From contig CAWFJP010000031.1 in the NCBI GenBank assembly GCA_963816145.1, positions 384,001 through 448,000 on the forward strand: a stretch of DNA of 64,000 bases, written 5' to 3'. The position numbers were made by a program, and so were the translations under genes. The notes beneath the pieces are model-generated. The model was given only the letters and a program-made list of their open reading frames with translations. It made no database searches and had not been told where the DNA came from. Source of the stretch: an uncultured delta proteobacterium (GTDB lineage Bacteria; Desulfobacterota; Binatia; UBA9968). Of this stretch, positions 48,023 through 53,201 are shown piece after piece (the first letter of the stretch is position 1; each line of letters begins with the position of its first letter).

Positions 48023-49138
48023 TTACAGGATGCTGGTCGGACTTGCCTTCGCGGCGTCTTCGGCCTTCGGCAGCCGGCCATCGGTGTCATGGACCAAAAA
48101 TCCCTTCTGGCCTTCAGCGCGATTCGGCGGAAGGCCGAGGTTGCTCAATGTTTCCTCCACGCTGTCGTACCAGACGCCTACCTTCATGATCTGGCGCGCT
48201 TCGTCCGCCGTGGCTACCTTGCGGCCGAACTGCTCGCTCTGTTTCACCGCCCACTCGACCTGCTTCACCGTCGGCCAGCGCTTCTTGTTCATGTCCCAGA
48301 TGTTATCCTCGTTGCCGACGCGCACGTGGGCGCCGAGAATCGTGCTCAGGGTTTGGATCGCGATGTTGCCGCGCATGCTGCTCCAGAACGTCACGCTCGA
48401 CGCTCCGTGCGGCGTGCGGCGCAGCATCTCCATCCAGTCAAACGGATTGCGGCCCATCGAACCACCGCCGTAACCGCACAGAGCTACGTTCAGCGGCCCC
48501 ATATATATGCCGCCGCGGACCAGCCGTTCGATGATCTCGAGCTGATGGACGTGGCCAGGCACAAAGTAGGGTTGGATGCCGTTCTTGCGCAGCCGCTTGA
48601 GGTGCTCCTCGTAGAACGCCGGCGTCGAATCCACGACCATGCCTCTCCAGGCTGCCAGAACCTTAGGGTTATCGAGATGCGTCCCCTTGATGTCCTCGGC
48701 GGTCATCGCCATCGTAACGTCCCAGAGCGTCGTGCCGGTCGTCACCGTGACGAATTCCGGCTTCGGGTCCAGCTCCGTCAGCATGTGGCGGGTGTCATAG
48801 TCGAGCCATTTGGCCTTGGCATCTTCGGTGTGCGGTGCGAACGAGATCGAGCCGCCTACCTGGATGATCATCTTCGGCACCGCCTGCCGGACGCGCGCGA
48901 GGAGTTCCTTGTACTGATCGAAGTTGCTGGAGCCCTGGCCGGTCTTGGGATCGCGAACGTGGAAGTGCAGCATCGTGGCGCCGGCGTTGTAGCAGTCGAC
49001 CGCCGCCTGCACCTGCTGGTCGAACGTGACAGGAAGCTCCTCGACATCGCCGGGGAGCCATTCAGGCCCGTAGGGCGCCGCCGTGATGATCGTGGGCTGC
49101 ATATTCTCGGGAAATAGCGAGTCTTCGGTAAAATACAT
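48023..49138 (-). CDS. Beta-keto acid cleavage enzyme (BKACE/Kce, DUF849) family protein
   Basis: IITAAPYG, C.NAGATMLHFHVRD (Zn HxH), HVRVGNEDN, GR.VAT..EAR; SD AAGGAG. Confidence 0.92.
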   Translation of the reverse strand: MYFTEDSLFPENMQPTIITAAPYGPEWLPGDVEELPVTFDQQVQAAVDCYNAGATMLHFHVRDPKTGQGSSNFDQYKELLARVRQAVPKMIIQVGGSISFAPHTEDAKAKWLDYDTRHMLTELDPKPEFVTVTTGTTLWDVTMAMTAEDIKGTHLDNPKVLAAWRGMVVDSTPAFYEEHLKRLRKNGIQPYFVPGHVHQLEIIERLVRGGIYMGPLNVALCGYGGGSMGRNPFDWMEMLRRTPHGASSVTFWSSMRGNIAIQTLSTILGAHVRVGNEDNIWDMNKKRWPTVKQVEWAVKQSEQFGRKVATADEARQIMKVGVWYDSVEETLSNLGLPPNRAEGQKGFLVHDTDGRLPKAEDAAKASPTSIL

Positions 49139-49266
49139 TTCGTTCTCCTTCGTTAGTTATTTCAGAACACTGGCAAACCCAATGCTCCAAAGGTTGATAT
49201 TCGACAGCGTTGCCCATTGATGTCATTTGTCTAATGCCTTGCTTCGCTACCTCCTTCCTCCGGTGC

Positions 49267-49644
49267 TCAATCCAAGTTCACGGCTTTGCGGATAGCTTCG
49301 AGCACAACTTCGCCAGGATCGTTTTTTCGCAAGTAAGCGCTACAGCAAGTTTGCCGTGCTTGCTCACGGATTTCCGGATCGTCGTGGGAGGTTATAAAAA
49401 TTATCGGGATGGTGGAGCCGGAACTAGCAAGTCTGTTCTGTAGCTCGAATCCGGATATTCCGCCCAATTGAATATCCAACAAGATGCAGTGCGGCGCTCG
49501 ACGTTCCTGATCTTCAAGAAAAGCTTCCGCAGAGGGATATGTGATCGGCCTAAAGCCGGCCGCGCGAAGTAGGCGATCCATCGCTTGGCACAAGCTCGCG
49601 TCATCATCGATAATTGCAATCCTAATTGTTTCTGTACTGCTCAT
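49267..49644 (-). CDS. Single-domain response regulator (receiver only)
   Basis: IDDD, LLDIQL (phospho-Asp), FITSHD, YLRK. Confidence 0.9.
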   Translation of the reverse strand: MSSTETIRIAIIDDDASLCQAMDRLLRAAGFRPITYPSAEAFLEDQERRAPHCILLDIQLGGISGFELQNRLASSGSTIPIIFITSHDDPEIREQARQTCCSAYLRKNDPGEVVLEAIRKAVNLD

Positions 49645-49825
49645 CGCAATTCAGTTCGCGTAAAAAACCAACGCGAATGAACGCAAATTAGCAGCGACTC
49701 AAATCGTCTGTCTATTTCCCTTTGGGGAAGTATCCGGAGGACAGGGGTCGAGGTTTGGGGATCGCGTCAGGACTGATCAGTAGTCAGTGAGTTGAAAGGG
49801 ATCGAGGGAGGAGGGATTGAACATC

Positions 49826-49908
49826 GAGGTTTCAGGTGTCGGGTTTCAGGATCGGCGGATGCGAACCTGCTGTGGCTCTCCGAAACTGAAACCTGAACAC
49901 TGAAACCT
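49826..49908. repeat. Empty heptamer-arm hairpin (same arms as the four-helix-bundle cassette)
   Basis: GAGGTTTCAGGTGTCGGGTTTCAGG, ~29-nt spacer, CCGAAACTGAAACCTGAACACTGAAACCT. Confidence 0.85.
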
Positions 49909-49952
49909 GGTATCTTCCCTCAGTACCCTACACTCAACACTCGTAAAAAGAA

Positions 49953-50588
49953 TTACAGCACTAGCTGACCGTCTTTGAACAGGCCGGCTTCTTGAACGAG
50001 TCGTGTCAGCTCGGCCACAGACTGAACACCGAGCTTGCTCATCATGCTGCCGCGGTGCACCTTGACCGTGCGGTCGGTAATACCCAGATCGTAAGCGGTT
50101 TGCTTATTCAGTTTTCCCTGTAAGACATACGCGAGCACCTCGCGCTCCCGCATTGTTAGCGTGTCAAAGCGTGCGCGCAGCTCGCTTTGACGCGCGCGAG
50201 CATGTCGTGCCTCGTCATCGCGCGCCAGCGCTCGTCTCACCGCGTCCAAAAGATTTTCTTTAGGTGCGCGTTTGGTGAGAAAGTCTTCGGCTCCATCTCT
50301 CATGGCGCGCACTGAAGTGGGAATATCGCCGTGGCCGGTGAGAAAGACCACCGGCATCGGATTGCTACTTTTGCTCAAGGCCGTTTGTAAATCGAGGCCG
50401 GAAACACCCGGCATTTTCAAATCCGCAATGACGCACCCCCGAGCCTCCGGTGTAAGAGATGCGAAAAATTCCGCCGCGGAAGCGAAAGTCTTCACGTCGA
50501 AGCTGGAAGCCTGGAGCAAACGCGATACTGCCTTGAGAAAAGAAGCGTCGTCATCCACTACATGAACAGCCGGAGAAGACGAGGACAT
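49953..50588 (-). CDS. FixJ-type response regulator (receiver plus LuxR HTH)
   Basis: VVDDD, ADLKMPG.SGL, FLTGHGDIP.SVRAM, LT.REREVL...GKLNKQ.A..LGI..RTVKVHR. Confidence 0.95.
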   Translation of the reverse strand: MSSSSPAVHVVDDDASFLKAVSRLLQASSFDVKTFASAAEFFASLTPEARGCVIADLKMPGVSGLDLQTALSKSSNPMPVVFLTGHGDIPTSVRAMRDGAEDFLTKRAPKENLLDAVRRALARDDEARHARARQSELRARFDTLTMREREVLAYVLQGKLNKQTAYDLGITDRTVKVHRGSMMSKLGVQSVAELTRLVQEAGLFKDGQLVL

Positions 50589-50590
50589 AC

Positions 50591-50641
50591 GGGTTTCGGG
50601 TGTCGGGCTTTGGGTTTTGGGGTTCGGGTTTCAGGTGTCAG
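50591..50641. repeat. Heptamer-repeat arm (GGGTTTC-like, about 7 units) at the 3' side of the four-helix-bundle gene
   Basis: GGGTTTC GGGTGTC GGGCTTT GGGTTTT GGGGTTC GGGTTTC AGGTGTC; inverted relative to 51113-51143. Confidence 0.85.
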
Positions 50642-51096
50642 CTCGGAGGCCAGCCGGCGTCGGTAAGCTCAGTGCTGTTACCGTAGGAGTTTGGACTTTC
50701 TTCCACGATCCACCGTCGCTCTCGCTCTGGTAGTTTTCGCTCAAGCGTTTTCTCCAAACCGTTCAGCATCCGGATGCATTCCTTGTACTTGGCGCGAAAC
50801 GACTGGTAAACGTCTGCAGTGATGTAAGCCTTTTCTTTCGCCATGAACAAGTGATGTATTGTCTCCGCGGCCTCACCTCGACTACGATTCACCCCCTCAA
50901 TCTTATTACGGACATGACGATCGTCGTTTTTCTCGGCAAGTTGCGCGGGCGAACTATTCGAAGAGCGGCGAATTTGCGATCCGATTTCGTATTTTTCCTC
51001 CGCCGGCCATGTGTGACTCAAATTACAGGCTTCAATATGTAGCCGACAAAGCTTCTGGTAAACTTGTAAATCCTCGACGTCCATATAACTGCTCAT
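50638..51096 (-). CDS. Four-helix-bundle protein (23S rRNA intervening-sequence protein / Avd-like family)
   Basis: EDL.VYQK, P.EEKY....QIRRSS.S..A.LAE, SRGEAAET...L, MLNGL; SD GGGAGG. Confidence 0.9.
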   Translation of the reverse strand: MSSYMDVEDLQVYQKLCRLHIEACNLSHTWPAEEKYEIGSQIRRSSNSSPAQLAEKNDDRHVRNKIEGVNRSRGEAAETIHHLFMAKEKAYITADVYQSFRAKYKECIRMLNGLEKTLERKLPERERRWIVEESPNSYGNSTELTDAGWPPS

Positions 51097-51112
51097 GTTC
51101 GCCTCCCGCTGT

Positions 51113-51143
51113 CCTGAAACCCGAAACCCGACACCTGAAACCT
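51113..51143. repeat. Heptamer-repeat arm (GAAACCC-like, about 4 units) at the 5' side of the four-helix-bundle gene
   Basis: CCTGAAACCCGAAACCCGACACCTGAAACCT. Confidence 0.85.
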
Positions 51144-53017
51144 CAAATTGCGCCTCGACCCTCGTCCCTTGTCTTCAGCGTCACGGTGAACGTAGCGCCC
51201 CCGTCTGAATTGTTTTCCGCCGTGATGCTTCCGCCATGCACTCCGATAATCGTTTGCGAAATCGCGAGGCCCATGCCCATGCCGCTCGGCTTCGTGGTAA
51301 AGAACGGCTCAAACAGACGCTTGAGATTTTCTTTCGGGATGCCGTGACCGAGATCGCTTACGGCAACTTGCGCTCTCCCGTCATCCAAACAGGTGCGAAT
51401 GGAGACGCGGCGCTCCGCGCCCGCGCTGCCGTTCATCGCATCCATCGCGTTGAGGACGAGGTTCAGGAGCACCTGCTGAAGCTGGACGCGGTCACCGGCA
51501 ATCGCTAGCTGCGCAGGAGCCAAATCCATCACTAGCTTTACCTTGCGTCTTTCGGCATCGGACCGGACCAGGCGAACGACCTCTTCTGCAAGCTGGTTCA
51601 AATCAATCCGGCTCCATTGGGATTCCTGCCGTTTGAGCAGAGCTCGCATGCGATCGATCACCTCTCCGGCGCGCTGATCGTCTTTGCGAATGTCGCTGAG
51701 AATTTCGCGTATCTCCTTGAGATCGGGAGGATTCGCTTGTGCGAAAAGTTCGCCGGCTTCGGCATTGCGGAGGATCGCGCCGAGCGGTTGGTTCAACTCG
51801 TGCGCCAGCGCCGTCGCTAACTGTCCCATCATTGAGACACGACCCGCGTGCGCCAATTCCTGGCGCTGCCGGTCCACTTCTCTCTCGGCCCGACGGCGCC
51901 GCGTCCTTTGCAGCATTAAGCCAAATATCAGCATGGCTTGGATCGCAATAATCGTGAGCGTCCCCGCGATATACCAACGATACTGGTCCCACATGGACAG
52001 CGGGCGGTATTTGACCACGCTCCCCGTGGGTAGACGGGTTTCACTGATGCCCCAACGCTTCAAAGCGCGCCAATCCAACACCGGTGCCGAATCCGTGCGA
52101 ATTTCGAAAGGCAACGAAGCCGGCGGAGTGCCGGTTAGAATCTGGCCTGCTAGTTCCCCGGCACGCTTTCCAAGCGAGTCGATAGTCACGAGCGATCCAC
52201 CGACGGCGCCCGTTCCCAAAATCGAATCAGCCATGACATACACGGGCGCGTTAGACCACTGAGCAATCCACTTGCCCACCTGTGAGGAAACATAGGCATG
52301 ACCGGCGCCATCGCGAAACATCCGGGAAAACAAAATCGCTGTTTTCGCCGGCAGCGTGCTTACAGCTTGGTGCAATTCGGCCACCGCACGGTTGTCCCAG
52401 AAATCGAATTCAACCCGTCCGGCGAAAGAGCTCGCAGCCTCTTTCACGCGCTCGATGACACTACGATCGACTTCGGCGGTGCCGCCGATGACGACAATAC
52501 GCCGCGTCTCGGGTTGCAAGCGGAGAATCAATTCTATCGAGGCGCGTGGGTCTAATCGCTGCGCGATGCCGCTGATACGGCGGCCAAATTCATTGGGCCG
52601 GACTTCTTCTTCGGTAAGACCGGCAACAATGACCGGGGTTTCGGGGAACAGGTACTGCAGCAAGTTCCCTGCAGCCGCCAGATTCCCGACGTAAAGCAAC
52701 ATGACAAGGTCGGGGCGCTGGTCGGCATATTTTTCTTGGAGATACTCGCCAAAAAGTCTCTGAAAGCGCGCCGTCGGGAAACGAATGATATCGAGATCCT
52801 CGCCATAGGTTTCGAGTCGCACTGCCGAAATCTTCCCCAGCGCTTCGAGTACGCGCTCATGCGCGGCGGCGAACCCTGCCGAGAATCGACTGCCGGTGGA
52901 AATAATCAATACACGCTTGGCAGACCCGGTTTCAGCAGCCTGGGCCGAGCTGAGCGCGGCGAGAGAGACGATCAGGCACAGCTCGGCAAGCCGCTGTGCG
53001 AAGCGGAAAGTTGCCAT
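51143..53017 (-). CDS. Sensor histidine kinase (FixL/NtrB-type core) with an extracytoplasmic SBP-like sensor domain
   Basis: Signal-like N-terminus, one TM, ALAHELNQPL (H-box), QQVLLNLVLNA, DLGHG, FFTTK..GMGMGL. Start 53017 or 53047. Confidence 0.93.
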   Translation of the reverse strand: MATFRFAQRLAELCLIVSLAALSSAQAAETGSAKRVLIISTGSRFSAGFAAAHERVLEALGKISAVRLETYGEDLDIIRFPTARFQRLFGEYLQEKYADQRPDLVMLLYVGNLAAAGNLLQYLFPETPVIVAGLTEEEVRPNEFGRRISGIAQRLDPRASIELILRLQPETRRIVVIGGTAEVDRSVIERVKEAASSFAGRVEFDFWDNRAVAELHQAVSTLPAKTAILFSRMFRDGAGHAYVSSQVGKWIAQWSNAPVYVMADSILGTGAVGGSLVTIDSLGKRAGELAGQILTGTPPASLPFEIRTDSAPVLDWRALKRWGISETRLPTGSVVKYRPLSMWDQYRWYIAGTLTIIAIQAMLIFGLMLQRTRRRRAEREVDRQRQELAHAGRVSMMGQLATALAHELNQPLGAILRNAEAGELFAQANPPDLKEIREILSDIRKDDQRAGEVIDRMRALLKRQESQWSRIDLNQLAEEVVRLVRSDAERRKVKLVMDLAPAQLAIAGDRVQLQQVLLNLVLNAMDAMNGSAGAERRVSIRTCLDDGRAQVAVSDLGHGIPKENLKRLFEPFFTTKPSGMGMGLAISQTIIGVHGGSITAENNSDGGATFTVTLKTRDEGRGAI

Positions 53018-53107
53018 GTCCTTCTTGTCCGCTTGGTGCCTAGTCACGGCGGCGAGGATAGCAAACCCCGATGTCGAGAAACAACCAGCCTATCCGAAAA
53101 ATGGCCT

Positions 53108-53201
53108 AAGTGTTTGGCTGTTCGGCGATGCACCCAATGGCCCAAGTTTGGCGATGAATCATTGAATCTTATAACCCAGTTCCTTCGCGACTTCGCGTGC
53201 C
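53108..53201. repeat. 94-bp direct repeat, right copy (3' end of the intact SBP gene plus 51 bp downstream)
   Basis: Matches 45024-45117 with 4 mismatches. Confidence 0.95.

Follow-up and report, generated by a model that had tools for sequence, protein, structure and literature searches.

The element described here is a small cassette in a 64,000-nt stretch of DNA (the window) from an uncultured delta proteobacterium of the Binatia lineage (contig CAWFJP010000031.1, positions 384,001 to 448,000), where it stands on the minus strand between a sensor histidine kinase gene and a response regulator gene of the FixJ/LuxR type. It comprises one gene of the PF05635 family, with its own Shine-Dalgarno (SD) sequence, and two tandem heptamer arrays of the unit GGTKTCR that flank this gene in inverted orientation, a G-rich one on the kinase side (arm 1) and a C-rich one on the regulator side (arm 2). 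An original prediction, made from the letters alone, had described this layout and proposed that the gene folds out of, or is cut from, the transcript. Direct reading of the minus strand recovered the layout (Table 1): arm 1 follows the kinase TGA stop (51145-51143), the cassette gene extends from an ATG at 51096 to a TGA at 50640-50638, and a GT (50590-50589) separates arm 2 from the regulator ATG at 50588. This ATG has no purine-rich SD in the 20 nt before it, and the regulator frame offers no alternative start codon and contains a stop codon inside arm 2. In the following, G000 denotes the genome of the window, other G-numbers related genomes, L-numbers loci, and C24 a paralogous operon in G000.

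Table 1. Features of the operon around the cassette (positions in the window; aa, amino acids; ORF, open reading frame)
Feature	Position	Strand	Basis and details
Sensor histidine kinase gene, 634 aa	51143..53047	-	ABC_sub_bind-like periplasmic part, HisKA and HATPase_c (ORF list, Pfam, sequence)
CGAGGGTCGAGG within the last kinase codons (..DEGRG..)	51153..51164	-	Direct reading; possible trace of a second heptamer unit, CGAGGGT
Arm 1, G-rich, 30 nt	51113..51142	-	GGTTTCA GGTGTCG GGTTTCG GGTTTCA + GG; begins 1 base past the kinase stop
SD of the cassette gene, GGGAGG	51102..51107	-	Direct reading; 5 nt ahead of the ATG
Cassette gene, 152-aa four-helix-bundle protein, PF05635/TIGR02436	50638..51096	-	Pfam, TIGR02436, alignment, structure model
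Arm 2, C-rich, 47 nt, about seven heptamers	50591..50637	-	CACCTGA AACCCGA ACCCCAA AACCCAA AGCCCGA CACCCGA AACCC
FixJ/LuxR-type response regulator, 211 aa	49953..50588	-	Response_reg and GerE; ATG 2 nt past arm 2
Gene-less GGTKTCR hairpin directly past the regulator	49828..49908	-	G-rich arm 49908-49880, 29-nt loop, C-rich arm 49850-49828
Single-domain response regulator, third operon gene	49267..49644	-	ORF list, Pfam; context

The window contains 9 occurrences of the motif GGTTTCRGGTKTCGGG (up to two mismatches), 0.15 being expected, and none of 100 shuffles reached 9. Together with the gene-less hairpin past the regulator, the cassette arms give the order G, C, G, C, which brackets both the cassette gene and the regulator. 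The gene order kinase-regulator-regulator recurs in the paralogue C24 and in the related genomes G031 and G009. As the original prediction had noted, the cassette holds no transposase: none was found in its ORF list, nor could a target-site duplication be read at the borders of the window arms (TTTGA before arm 1, GTATG after arm 2). An insertion sequence or a miniature inverted-repeat transposable element was rejected on these two grounds. Four DNA contig runs aligned to the window bridged the kinase/arm 1 and arm 2/regulator junctions with no differences (X2, X14) and contained no joint skipping 50590-51143. One joint in X12 (49910 to 51122, with a 23-nt side and 27 intervening letters) resembles one more GGTKTCR hairpin rather than an empty allele. 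In this sediment metagenome, at a depth of about 3, the contig of the cassette gene is 3 in 504 bases off the window (50660-51163) and the regulator contigs (49962-50602) are 12-14% off; the contigs may derive from different organisms.

To our knowledge, the very numerous PF05635 proteins have had no known function in the roughly 30 years since their discovery in rRNA intervening sequences. The cassette protein matched PF05635 over profile positions 1-106 with E 4.7e-23 and 81.9 bits (cut-off 33.8), and TIGR02436 with 78.6 bits (cut-off 24). A structure model based on 30 relatives gave four helices (residues 7-29, 32-48, 59-88 and 94-119) and a disordered C-terminal tail, with a predicted local distance difference test score (pLDDT) of 75.9. 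The best Foldseek matches of this model were 2GSC (XCC0516; target TM-score 0.72-0.73) and 2RLD (BT_0352), with E-values of 1e-3 to 5e-2; lower in the list stood Avd (4DWL; probability 0.99, target TM-score 0.67). A sequence-based structure search matched 2GSC alone (E 0.007). The connection of the family with rRNA intervening sequences and with Avd, stated in the original prediction, was thereby upheld by Pfam, NCBIfam, fold and published papers. A total of 2417 relatives were found, the best 120 of which were all at least 72% identical over their full length. Within this subfamily, proteins measure 150-157 aa, the mean column identity in an alignment of 30 sequences was 72%, the stretches SPAQLAEKNDD.H and EG.NRSRGEA.E..HH were invariant and the tail RRW...GWP was conserved. 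In many members the C-terminal residues PET arise from translation of the first arm 2 units.

PF05635 has been described as resembling Avd of diversity-generating retroelements in the passages of PMC10053308 that concern it, and the 4DWL match places the cassette protein in the same fold family. The setting differs from that of Avd: the four neighbouring genes scanned encode the kinase, the two regulators and an NMT1-like protein, and there was no reverse transcriptase among these four, no wider search having been made and template or variable repeats not having been looked for. A passage of PMC3936711 reports PF05635 genes in cas operons, for instance between cmr3 and cmr2, with the motif GxxRxxxSxxxNxxE. 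These genes are likewise wedged between operon genes. At the place of their motif the cassette protein reads R44-x3-S48-x3-Q52-x2-E55, and within its subfamily R44, S48 and E55 are invariant, as is Q52 at the N position. The same passage interprets the genes as possibly serving Cas-associated functions and contains no mention of repeats at their flanks.

The heptamer unit proved to be specific to the protein subfamily. A scan of one genome per species gave 80 loci with proteins 65-82% identical to that of the window, 79 of them with both flanks, and these loci span at least seven phyla (Desulfobacterota, Verrucomicrobiota, Lentisphaerota, Kiritimatiellia, Bacteroidota, Acidobacteriota and Armatimonadota metagenome-assembled genomes, MAGs). 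In the survey of flanks suggested in the original prediction, clear inverted period-7 GGTKTCR arms were present at 60 of these 79; the G-rich arm lay on the 5' side at 58 and the order was reversed at 2. At each of the other 19 loci, two or more cognate units stood within 160 nt ahead of the gene, and at 18 of these loci they had the G-rich orientation. Counted over either side, cognate units in G orientation occurred at 78 loci; the 79th carried the reverse orientation only. From 532 units we derived the profile G.97, G.83, T.80, T/G, T.98, C.95, A/G. The number and order of units varied even among orthologous loci (L054 versus L057; L101, L104 and L111). A unit that stays constant across phyla while its number and order vary suggests selection on the unit sequence that goes beyond pairing.

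Among the other PF05635 genes of G000, with 10 matches of which 8 pass the cut-off, quite different units were read, namely AGGCAAT, GGGTAAG, GAGTTGA and the 9-mer GTTCAAANN; both arms were seen for six of the eight full-length paralogues, and only downstream arrays for C11:62976 and C11:381465. Yet another unit accompanies each of the relatives that share about 50% identity with the AGGCAAT protein. A second PF05635 cassette in G000, with GGGTAAG-type arms (C11:340835-341149, L002), lies between a histidine-kinase-like stop and a response regulator; this regulator (MAKKKILVVDD...) has an AAGGAG of its own.

Comparison of homologous operons identified the cassette as an acquired, discrete insert at an ancestrally overlapping (ATGA or GTGA) kinase/regulator junction. 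The metagenome scan and the relatives provided 53 distinct kinase-to-regulator junctions of one operon family. At 35 of these the genes abut or overlap without any cassette, and the tight junctions that were read are ATGA or GTGA overlaps; the regulator of L147, for example, starts MSSAGPVIHIVDDD, that of the window MSSSSPAVHVVDDD. Eleven junctions carry 60-140 nt, and a heptamer hairpin or array was confirmed in the five read (L123, L135, L132, C24, L133); the other six are L173, L150, L187, L039, L037 and L136. L123 and L135, together with L122, a near-copy, show a gene-less hairpin of the unit GTGATCG/GTAATCA, L132 one of the window's own GGTKTCR unit, C24 a gene-less heptamer hairpin and L133 direct 14-mers. 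The remaining seven junctions carry 250-750 nt, and all seven hold a PF05635 gene or a remnant of one: the subfamily of the window in the window itself (and L121), G009 and G031, a truncated remnant of it in L032 (genome G005), an intact gene of a second subfamily in L179, and a third subfamily in L143 and L154. On contigs ending before the regulator, a cassette also follows the kinase in L124 (window subfamily) and in L125/L126 (second subfamily).

In a quick tree of 46 regulator receiver domains, for which branch support came from the Shimodaira-Hasegawa-like approximate likelihood ratio test only, the cassette state required six changes, at least four of which were forced by well-supported branches. 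The labels were scattered over this tree and no more clustered than after shuffling, 141 of 500 shuffles being as low, and different cassette types occupied the same junction within one regulator clade. Sister loci supplied one filled/deleted and one filled/empty pair. L164 and L165 are the L179 locus with an internal deletion (about 600 nt by reading) that left the first 32 codons and remnants of the arms. The filled loci L143 and L154 align against L168 and L172, which are empty and have a TGAATG junction; the regulator DNA of L143 is almost identical to that of L168/L172 and the 3' ends of the kinases are far more divergent, which points to a recombination breakpoint at the junction.

Traces of arrays were also found in the coding ends. 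CGAGGGT units encode the kinase tails (..EGRG..) of the window (51153-51164), G031 (L214), L132, L143 and L154, and ahead of the regulator start the unit returns as ACCCTCG in G031, L143, L154 and L179. The stretch in the window may be a vestige of outer CGAGGGT arms such as the relatives have at this junction. The C-rich arm supplies codons for the N-terminus of some regulators, and the EGRG tails suggest that arrays grew into coding ends or were absorbed by them.

The arms of the window are complementary 7-nt-periodic repeats, as the original prediction had stated, with 80% complementarity over 30 nt, 88% over 26 nt and 100% over 13 nt; arm 2 is complementary to arm 1 save for a 14-nt bulge. 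When the reverse complement of the region was folded in silico as a 576-nt RNA, its energy was -200.8 kcal/mol versus -174.7 +/- 7.2 kcal/mol for shuffled sequences (z -3.62), none of the 100 shuffles was as good, and arm 1 was paired with arm 2 in both the minimum free energy and the centroid structure. Stop and start codon are themselves part of the predicted arm duplex (-50.8 kcal/mol): the UGA pairs through its U and G with the A and U of the AUG, which would set the kinase stop beside the regulator start as originally envisaged. An Rfam scan of 49000-53200 gave no rRNA or other match above the gathering score. A self-splicing intron of group I or II was rejected: there was no ribozyme core, and at E up to 1 Rfam returned two sub-threshold matches to miRNA models. 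We also rejected pairing of the cassette SD with the gene's own 3' end as a general feature; it reached -19.9 kcal/mol and z -1.7 in the window, yet the mean z was -0.41, with 10 of 54 loci below z -2 (in several loci the start codons were a few codons off).

The cassette is probably transcribed by read-through of the operon. No promoter-like site was found in 49600-51400, and two terminator-like sites in coding sequence were no more than the shuffle level; a promoter or terminator inside the cassette was therefore rejected. Same-strand ORFs lie close by on both sides in 35 of 53 non-redundant cassettes, which fits read-through transcription. The regulator ATG stands 0-3 nt past the C-rich arm (...ACCC(T)ATG), without an SD, in the window, G031, G009, L132, C24 and L032, and over the subfamily 11 of 42 downstream genes begin no more than 10 nt from the arm. 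This recurrent geometry, together with the ancestral overlap, makes the idea of translational coupling attractive, as folding would restore the contact of stop and start.

From these data we consider it fairly probable that the cassette is of the rRNA-intervening-sequence type, was acquired at an overlap, is transcribed by read-through and is looped out by the stem of its arms. A single PF05635 gene that brought its own ribosome-binding site and stands between inverted GGTKTCR arrays entered the overlapping kinase/regulator junction. In the transcript the arms would zip into a stem of about 36 bp, the gene would be looped out, and the kinase stop would be returned to the SD-less regulator start. 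The operon most likely tolerates the insert by one of two routes: either the stem would be cut by RNase III, as in rRNA intervening sequences, or ribosomes finishing the kinase would open the base of the stem and start the regulator. G000 encodes one RNase III gene. The protein itself most likely binds nucleic acid bearing its own repeat unit. The fold-out mechanism of the original prediction appears plausible to us.

Several features connect the cassette with the ORF-bearing intervening sequences described in passages of PMC4990558 for 23S rRNA of Coxiella burnetii (helix 45), Leptospira, Brucella and Xanthomonas, which are bordered by inverted repeats, contain an S23p ORF and are cut by RNase III. 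Shared are a length of about 430-550 nt, a single S23p/PF05635 ORF, inverted repeats that form a long stem, a sporadic distribution suggestive of horizontal transfer and a host molecule that tolerates the insert. The cassette of the window, however, lies between two protein genes and not in helix 9, 25 or 45 of 23S rRNA, and cutting here would sever an mRNA, whereas cut rRNA stays held in the ribosome. Its arms are tandem heptamer arrays, of which the passages in PMC4990558 make no mention for rRNA intervening sequences. Finally, the window gene has a strong SD and is highly conserved, whereas those passages report the Coxiella ORF as decaying and untranslated.

A number of observations weigh against the favoured reading. 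In the window, the longest unbroken helix between arms 1 and 2 has 13 bp, or 23 bp if stacked over the 14-nt bulge. The best partner of arm 1 is not arm 2 but the distal C-rich arm (49850-49828), which with its flanking TCGA forms 27 contiguous pairs with arm 1 and the preceding GAGG (-54.3 kcal/mol); in summed duplex energies this nested alternative is overall the less stable one, at -77.1 versus -86.3 kcal/mol. Over 54 cassettes there were 163 G-U pairs in the sense versus 118 in the antisense strand, the sense strand was the more stable in 35 versus 19 cases (Wilcoxon p 0.058), and the window arms themselves were more stable in antisense (-65.0 versus -52.4 kcal/mol). With this weak strand bias and the antisense preference of the window, pairing gives no clear pointer to the sense RNA. 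Other cassettes at this kind of junction provide for the regulator differently: the regulator ORFs of L143 and L154 appear to begin within the end of the cassette gene, at an ATG that overlaps its stop and is preceded by a GGAGG, and to continue across the entire C-rich arm (L143:950-1580, L154:1420-2000), which yields an N-terminal extension rich in Pro, Ser and Asp. Of the orthologous kinase-regulator pairs lacking the cassette to which the original prediction had looked, homologous pairs were found, mostly overlapping, and no empty-site orthologue of the exact window operon turned up in 60 relatives and the metagenome scan; the 60 relatives held no close kinase orthologue either (best 60%, partial). 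The closest kinases, at 79-82% identity (L122, L123, L135), are followed by the gene-less hairpin of a different unit and not by a clean empty site. The window protein was found in 3 of 61 related genomes (G000, G031 and G009, with 18, 84 and 33 array matches); at E 1e-30 the gene was missing from G033, G008 and G023, which have 104, 66 and 47 array matches. No PF05635 gene with matching arms accompanies the largest heptamer and nonamer families of G000 (GGATTTT, GATAATT, AGGCAAT and the 9-mer GTTCCAATC lead the list of arrays). In view of such families and of array-rich genomes without the cognate gene, we rejected the idea that each hairpin family has its own PF05635 gene.

The evidence for a role of the arms as RNA or as DNA is mixed. 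The arms might matter as DNA, with RNA folding as a by-product: gene-less hairpins would be landing pads, the gene would be spread or lost by recombination, gene conversion or slippage, possibly after DNA uptake, and the protein would be a DNA-binding specificity or protection factor. We see this as possible though rather doubtful. It would be in line with the lack of a transposase and of target-site duplications at the window cassette, with pairing that shows no clear sense-strand bias and with a unit conserved across phyla while its number and order vary between orthologous loci. Gene-less GGTKTCR hairpins at the same junction type (L132) and beside the window cassette, different cassette types at one junction within one regulator clade, the internal-deletion alleles L164 and L165, and arrays in genomes without the gene point in the same direction, and gain or loss without a transposase, by recombination between arrays of the same unit, is plausible. 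Array-rich genomes, however, keep a single gene copy (84 matches in G031, 33 in G009), so that spread into landing pads would be rare at best. The only recent multiplication seen did not use the arms either. In the MAG CAVUUJ01, which has at least eight copies of 98.4-99.8% identity, some in tandem (L078, L082, L086, L087, L100, L103, L110, L117), the cassette is the cargo of a transposon-like element: it is nested in an element of about 665 bp with outer 24-bp terminal inverted repeats (GGYTCTTTCGC...TGTGGGT), and 8-bp target-site duplications were read in four copies. The polarity of the arms fits a transcript-level role, and the analogy with rRNA intervening sequences and the RNase III gene of G000 also speak for RNA. 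The G-rich arm comes first in 58 of 60 cassettes, and among 77 gene-less hairpins after one stop codon in G000 it came first in 33, versus 12 with the C-rich arm first and 32 ambiguous ones.

Gene-bearing and gene-less forms also invite comparison with REPIN-RAYT systems (hairpins of repetitive extragenic palindromes, REP, and their associated tyrosine transposases). According to PMC3116915 and PMC3337134, these too have a single-copy gene flanked by an inverted short repeat that is also spread as gene-less hairpins, and each gene type has its own repeat type. Unlike a RAYT, the window protein is a small helical bundle and not a Y1 transposase, and the arrays are abundant in genomes without the cognate gene. 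We rejected a REPIN-RAYT reading, since six Y1_Tnp loci of G000 (of seven matches) were flanked by small palindromes and had no heptamer array within 800 nt.

The hairpins could also be a device of the host comparable to REP or bacterial interspersed mosaic elements. They would set the kinase/regulator ratio by stabilising the mRNA or through partial termination or attenuation, and the gene would be a passenger lodged in hairpin loops. G000 indeed contains 194 tandem arrays of period 7 and 156 of period 9, versus 2, 33, 2 and 1 for periods 5, 8, 10 and 11; at least 104 arrays form gene-less hairpins, 96 of them directly past the stop of a long ORF, and most hairpin families have no gene. A gene-less hairpin also occupies the junction in the paralogue C24 and in the operons of the closest kinase relatives. 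Comparable arrays have been reported elsewhere: passages of PMC4692102 describe intergenic GGGAATC heptamer arrays in Xanthomonas, many as convergent inverted pairs, and passages of PMC4679880 TAACTGA arrays in Beggiatoaceae and cyanobacteria, most of which end 1 nt before a start codon, usually without an SD. They resemble the window arrays in their tandem 7-nt units, inverted pairs, abutted SD-less starts and length variation among close relatives, and differ in that neither paper ties them to a four-helix-bundle gene or contains the terms 'four helix' and 'intervening'. A passenger, on the other hand, would not be expected to keep the same unit in seven or more phyla, as seen at 78 of 79 loci, or to show a unit specific to its subfamily, and most homologous operons lack any hairpin (35 of 53). 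We judge a host device with a passenger gene unlikely.

A bolder version of the fold-out reading would be a bacterial ribosome shunt, in which ribosomes melt the base of the stem and reinitiate about 550 nt further on, a pentameric protein tunes this by reading the heptamer register of the arms, and the arrangement constitutes a general strategy of transposase-free cassettes in operons of many phyla. Ribosomes are known to shunt over the structured 35S RNA leader of cauliflower mosaic virus, and gene 60 of phage T4 is translated with bypassing. By analogy, a ribosome terminating at the foot of a stable stem would resume just beyond it; those cases, however, concern a eukaryotic virus, or only 50 nt, and we know of nothing similar for a 550-nt insert in bacteria. 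A shunt in this full form seems quite improbable to us. Mere chance, that is an ordinary small gene between unrelated low-complexity spacers, is hardly credible: the imperfect complementarity of the arms (80-88%) would by itself agree with it, but not the 9 motifs versus 0.15 expected, the fold z of -3.62 or the same design at 60 of 79 loci.

In conclusion, the cassette is real and acquired, and it belongs to an apparently undescribed yet widespread kind whose nearest known relative is the ORF-bearing rRNA intervening sequence. A full-text search of the literature returned no paper that connects PF05635 genes with heptamer arrays at their flanks. The gene moves together with inverted arrays of a heptamer specific to its subfamily and enters operon junctions, and a single junction type displays filled, empty, deleted and gene-less states. 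The anatomy of the cassette turns a 'hypothetical protein' into a system that is open to bench tests. It may also hint at a common origin for the unexplained intergenic heptamer arrays of Xanthomonas, cyanobacteria and Beggiatoaceae. Should the stem indeed restore coupling between the genes that the insert has split, this would be a new mode of translation control in bacteria.

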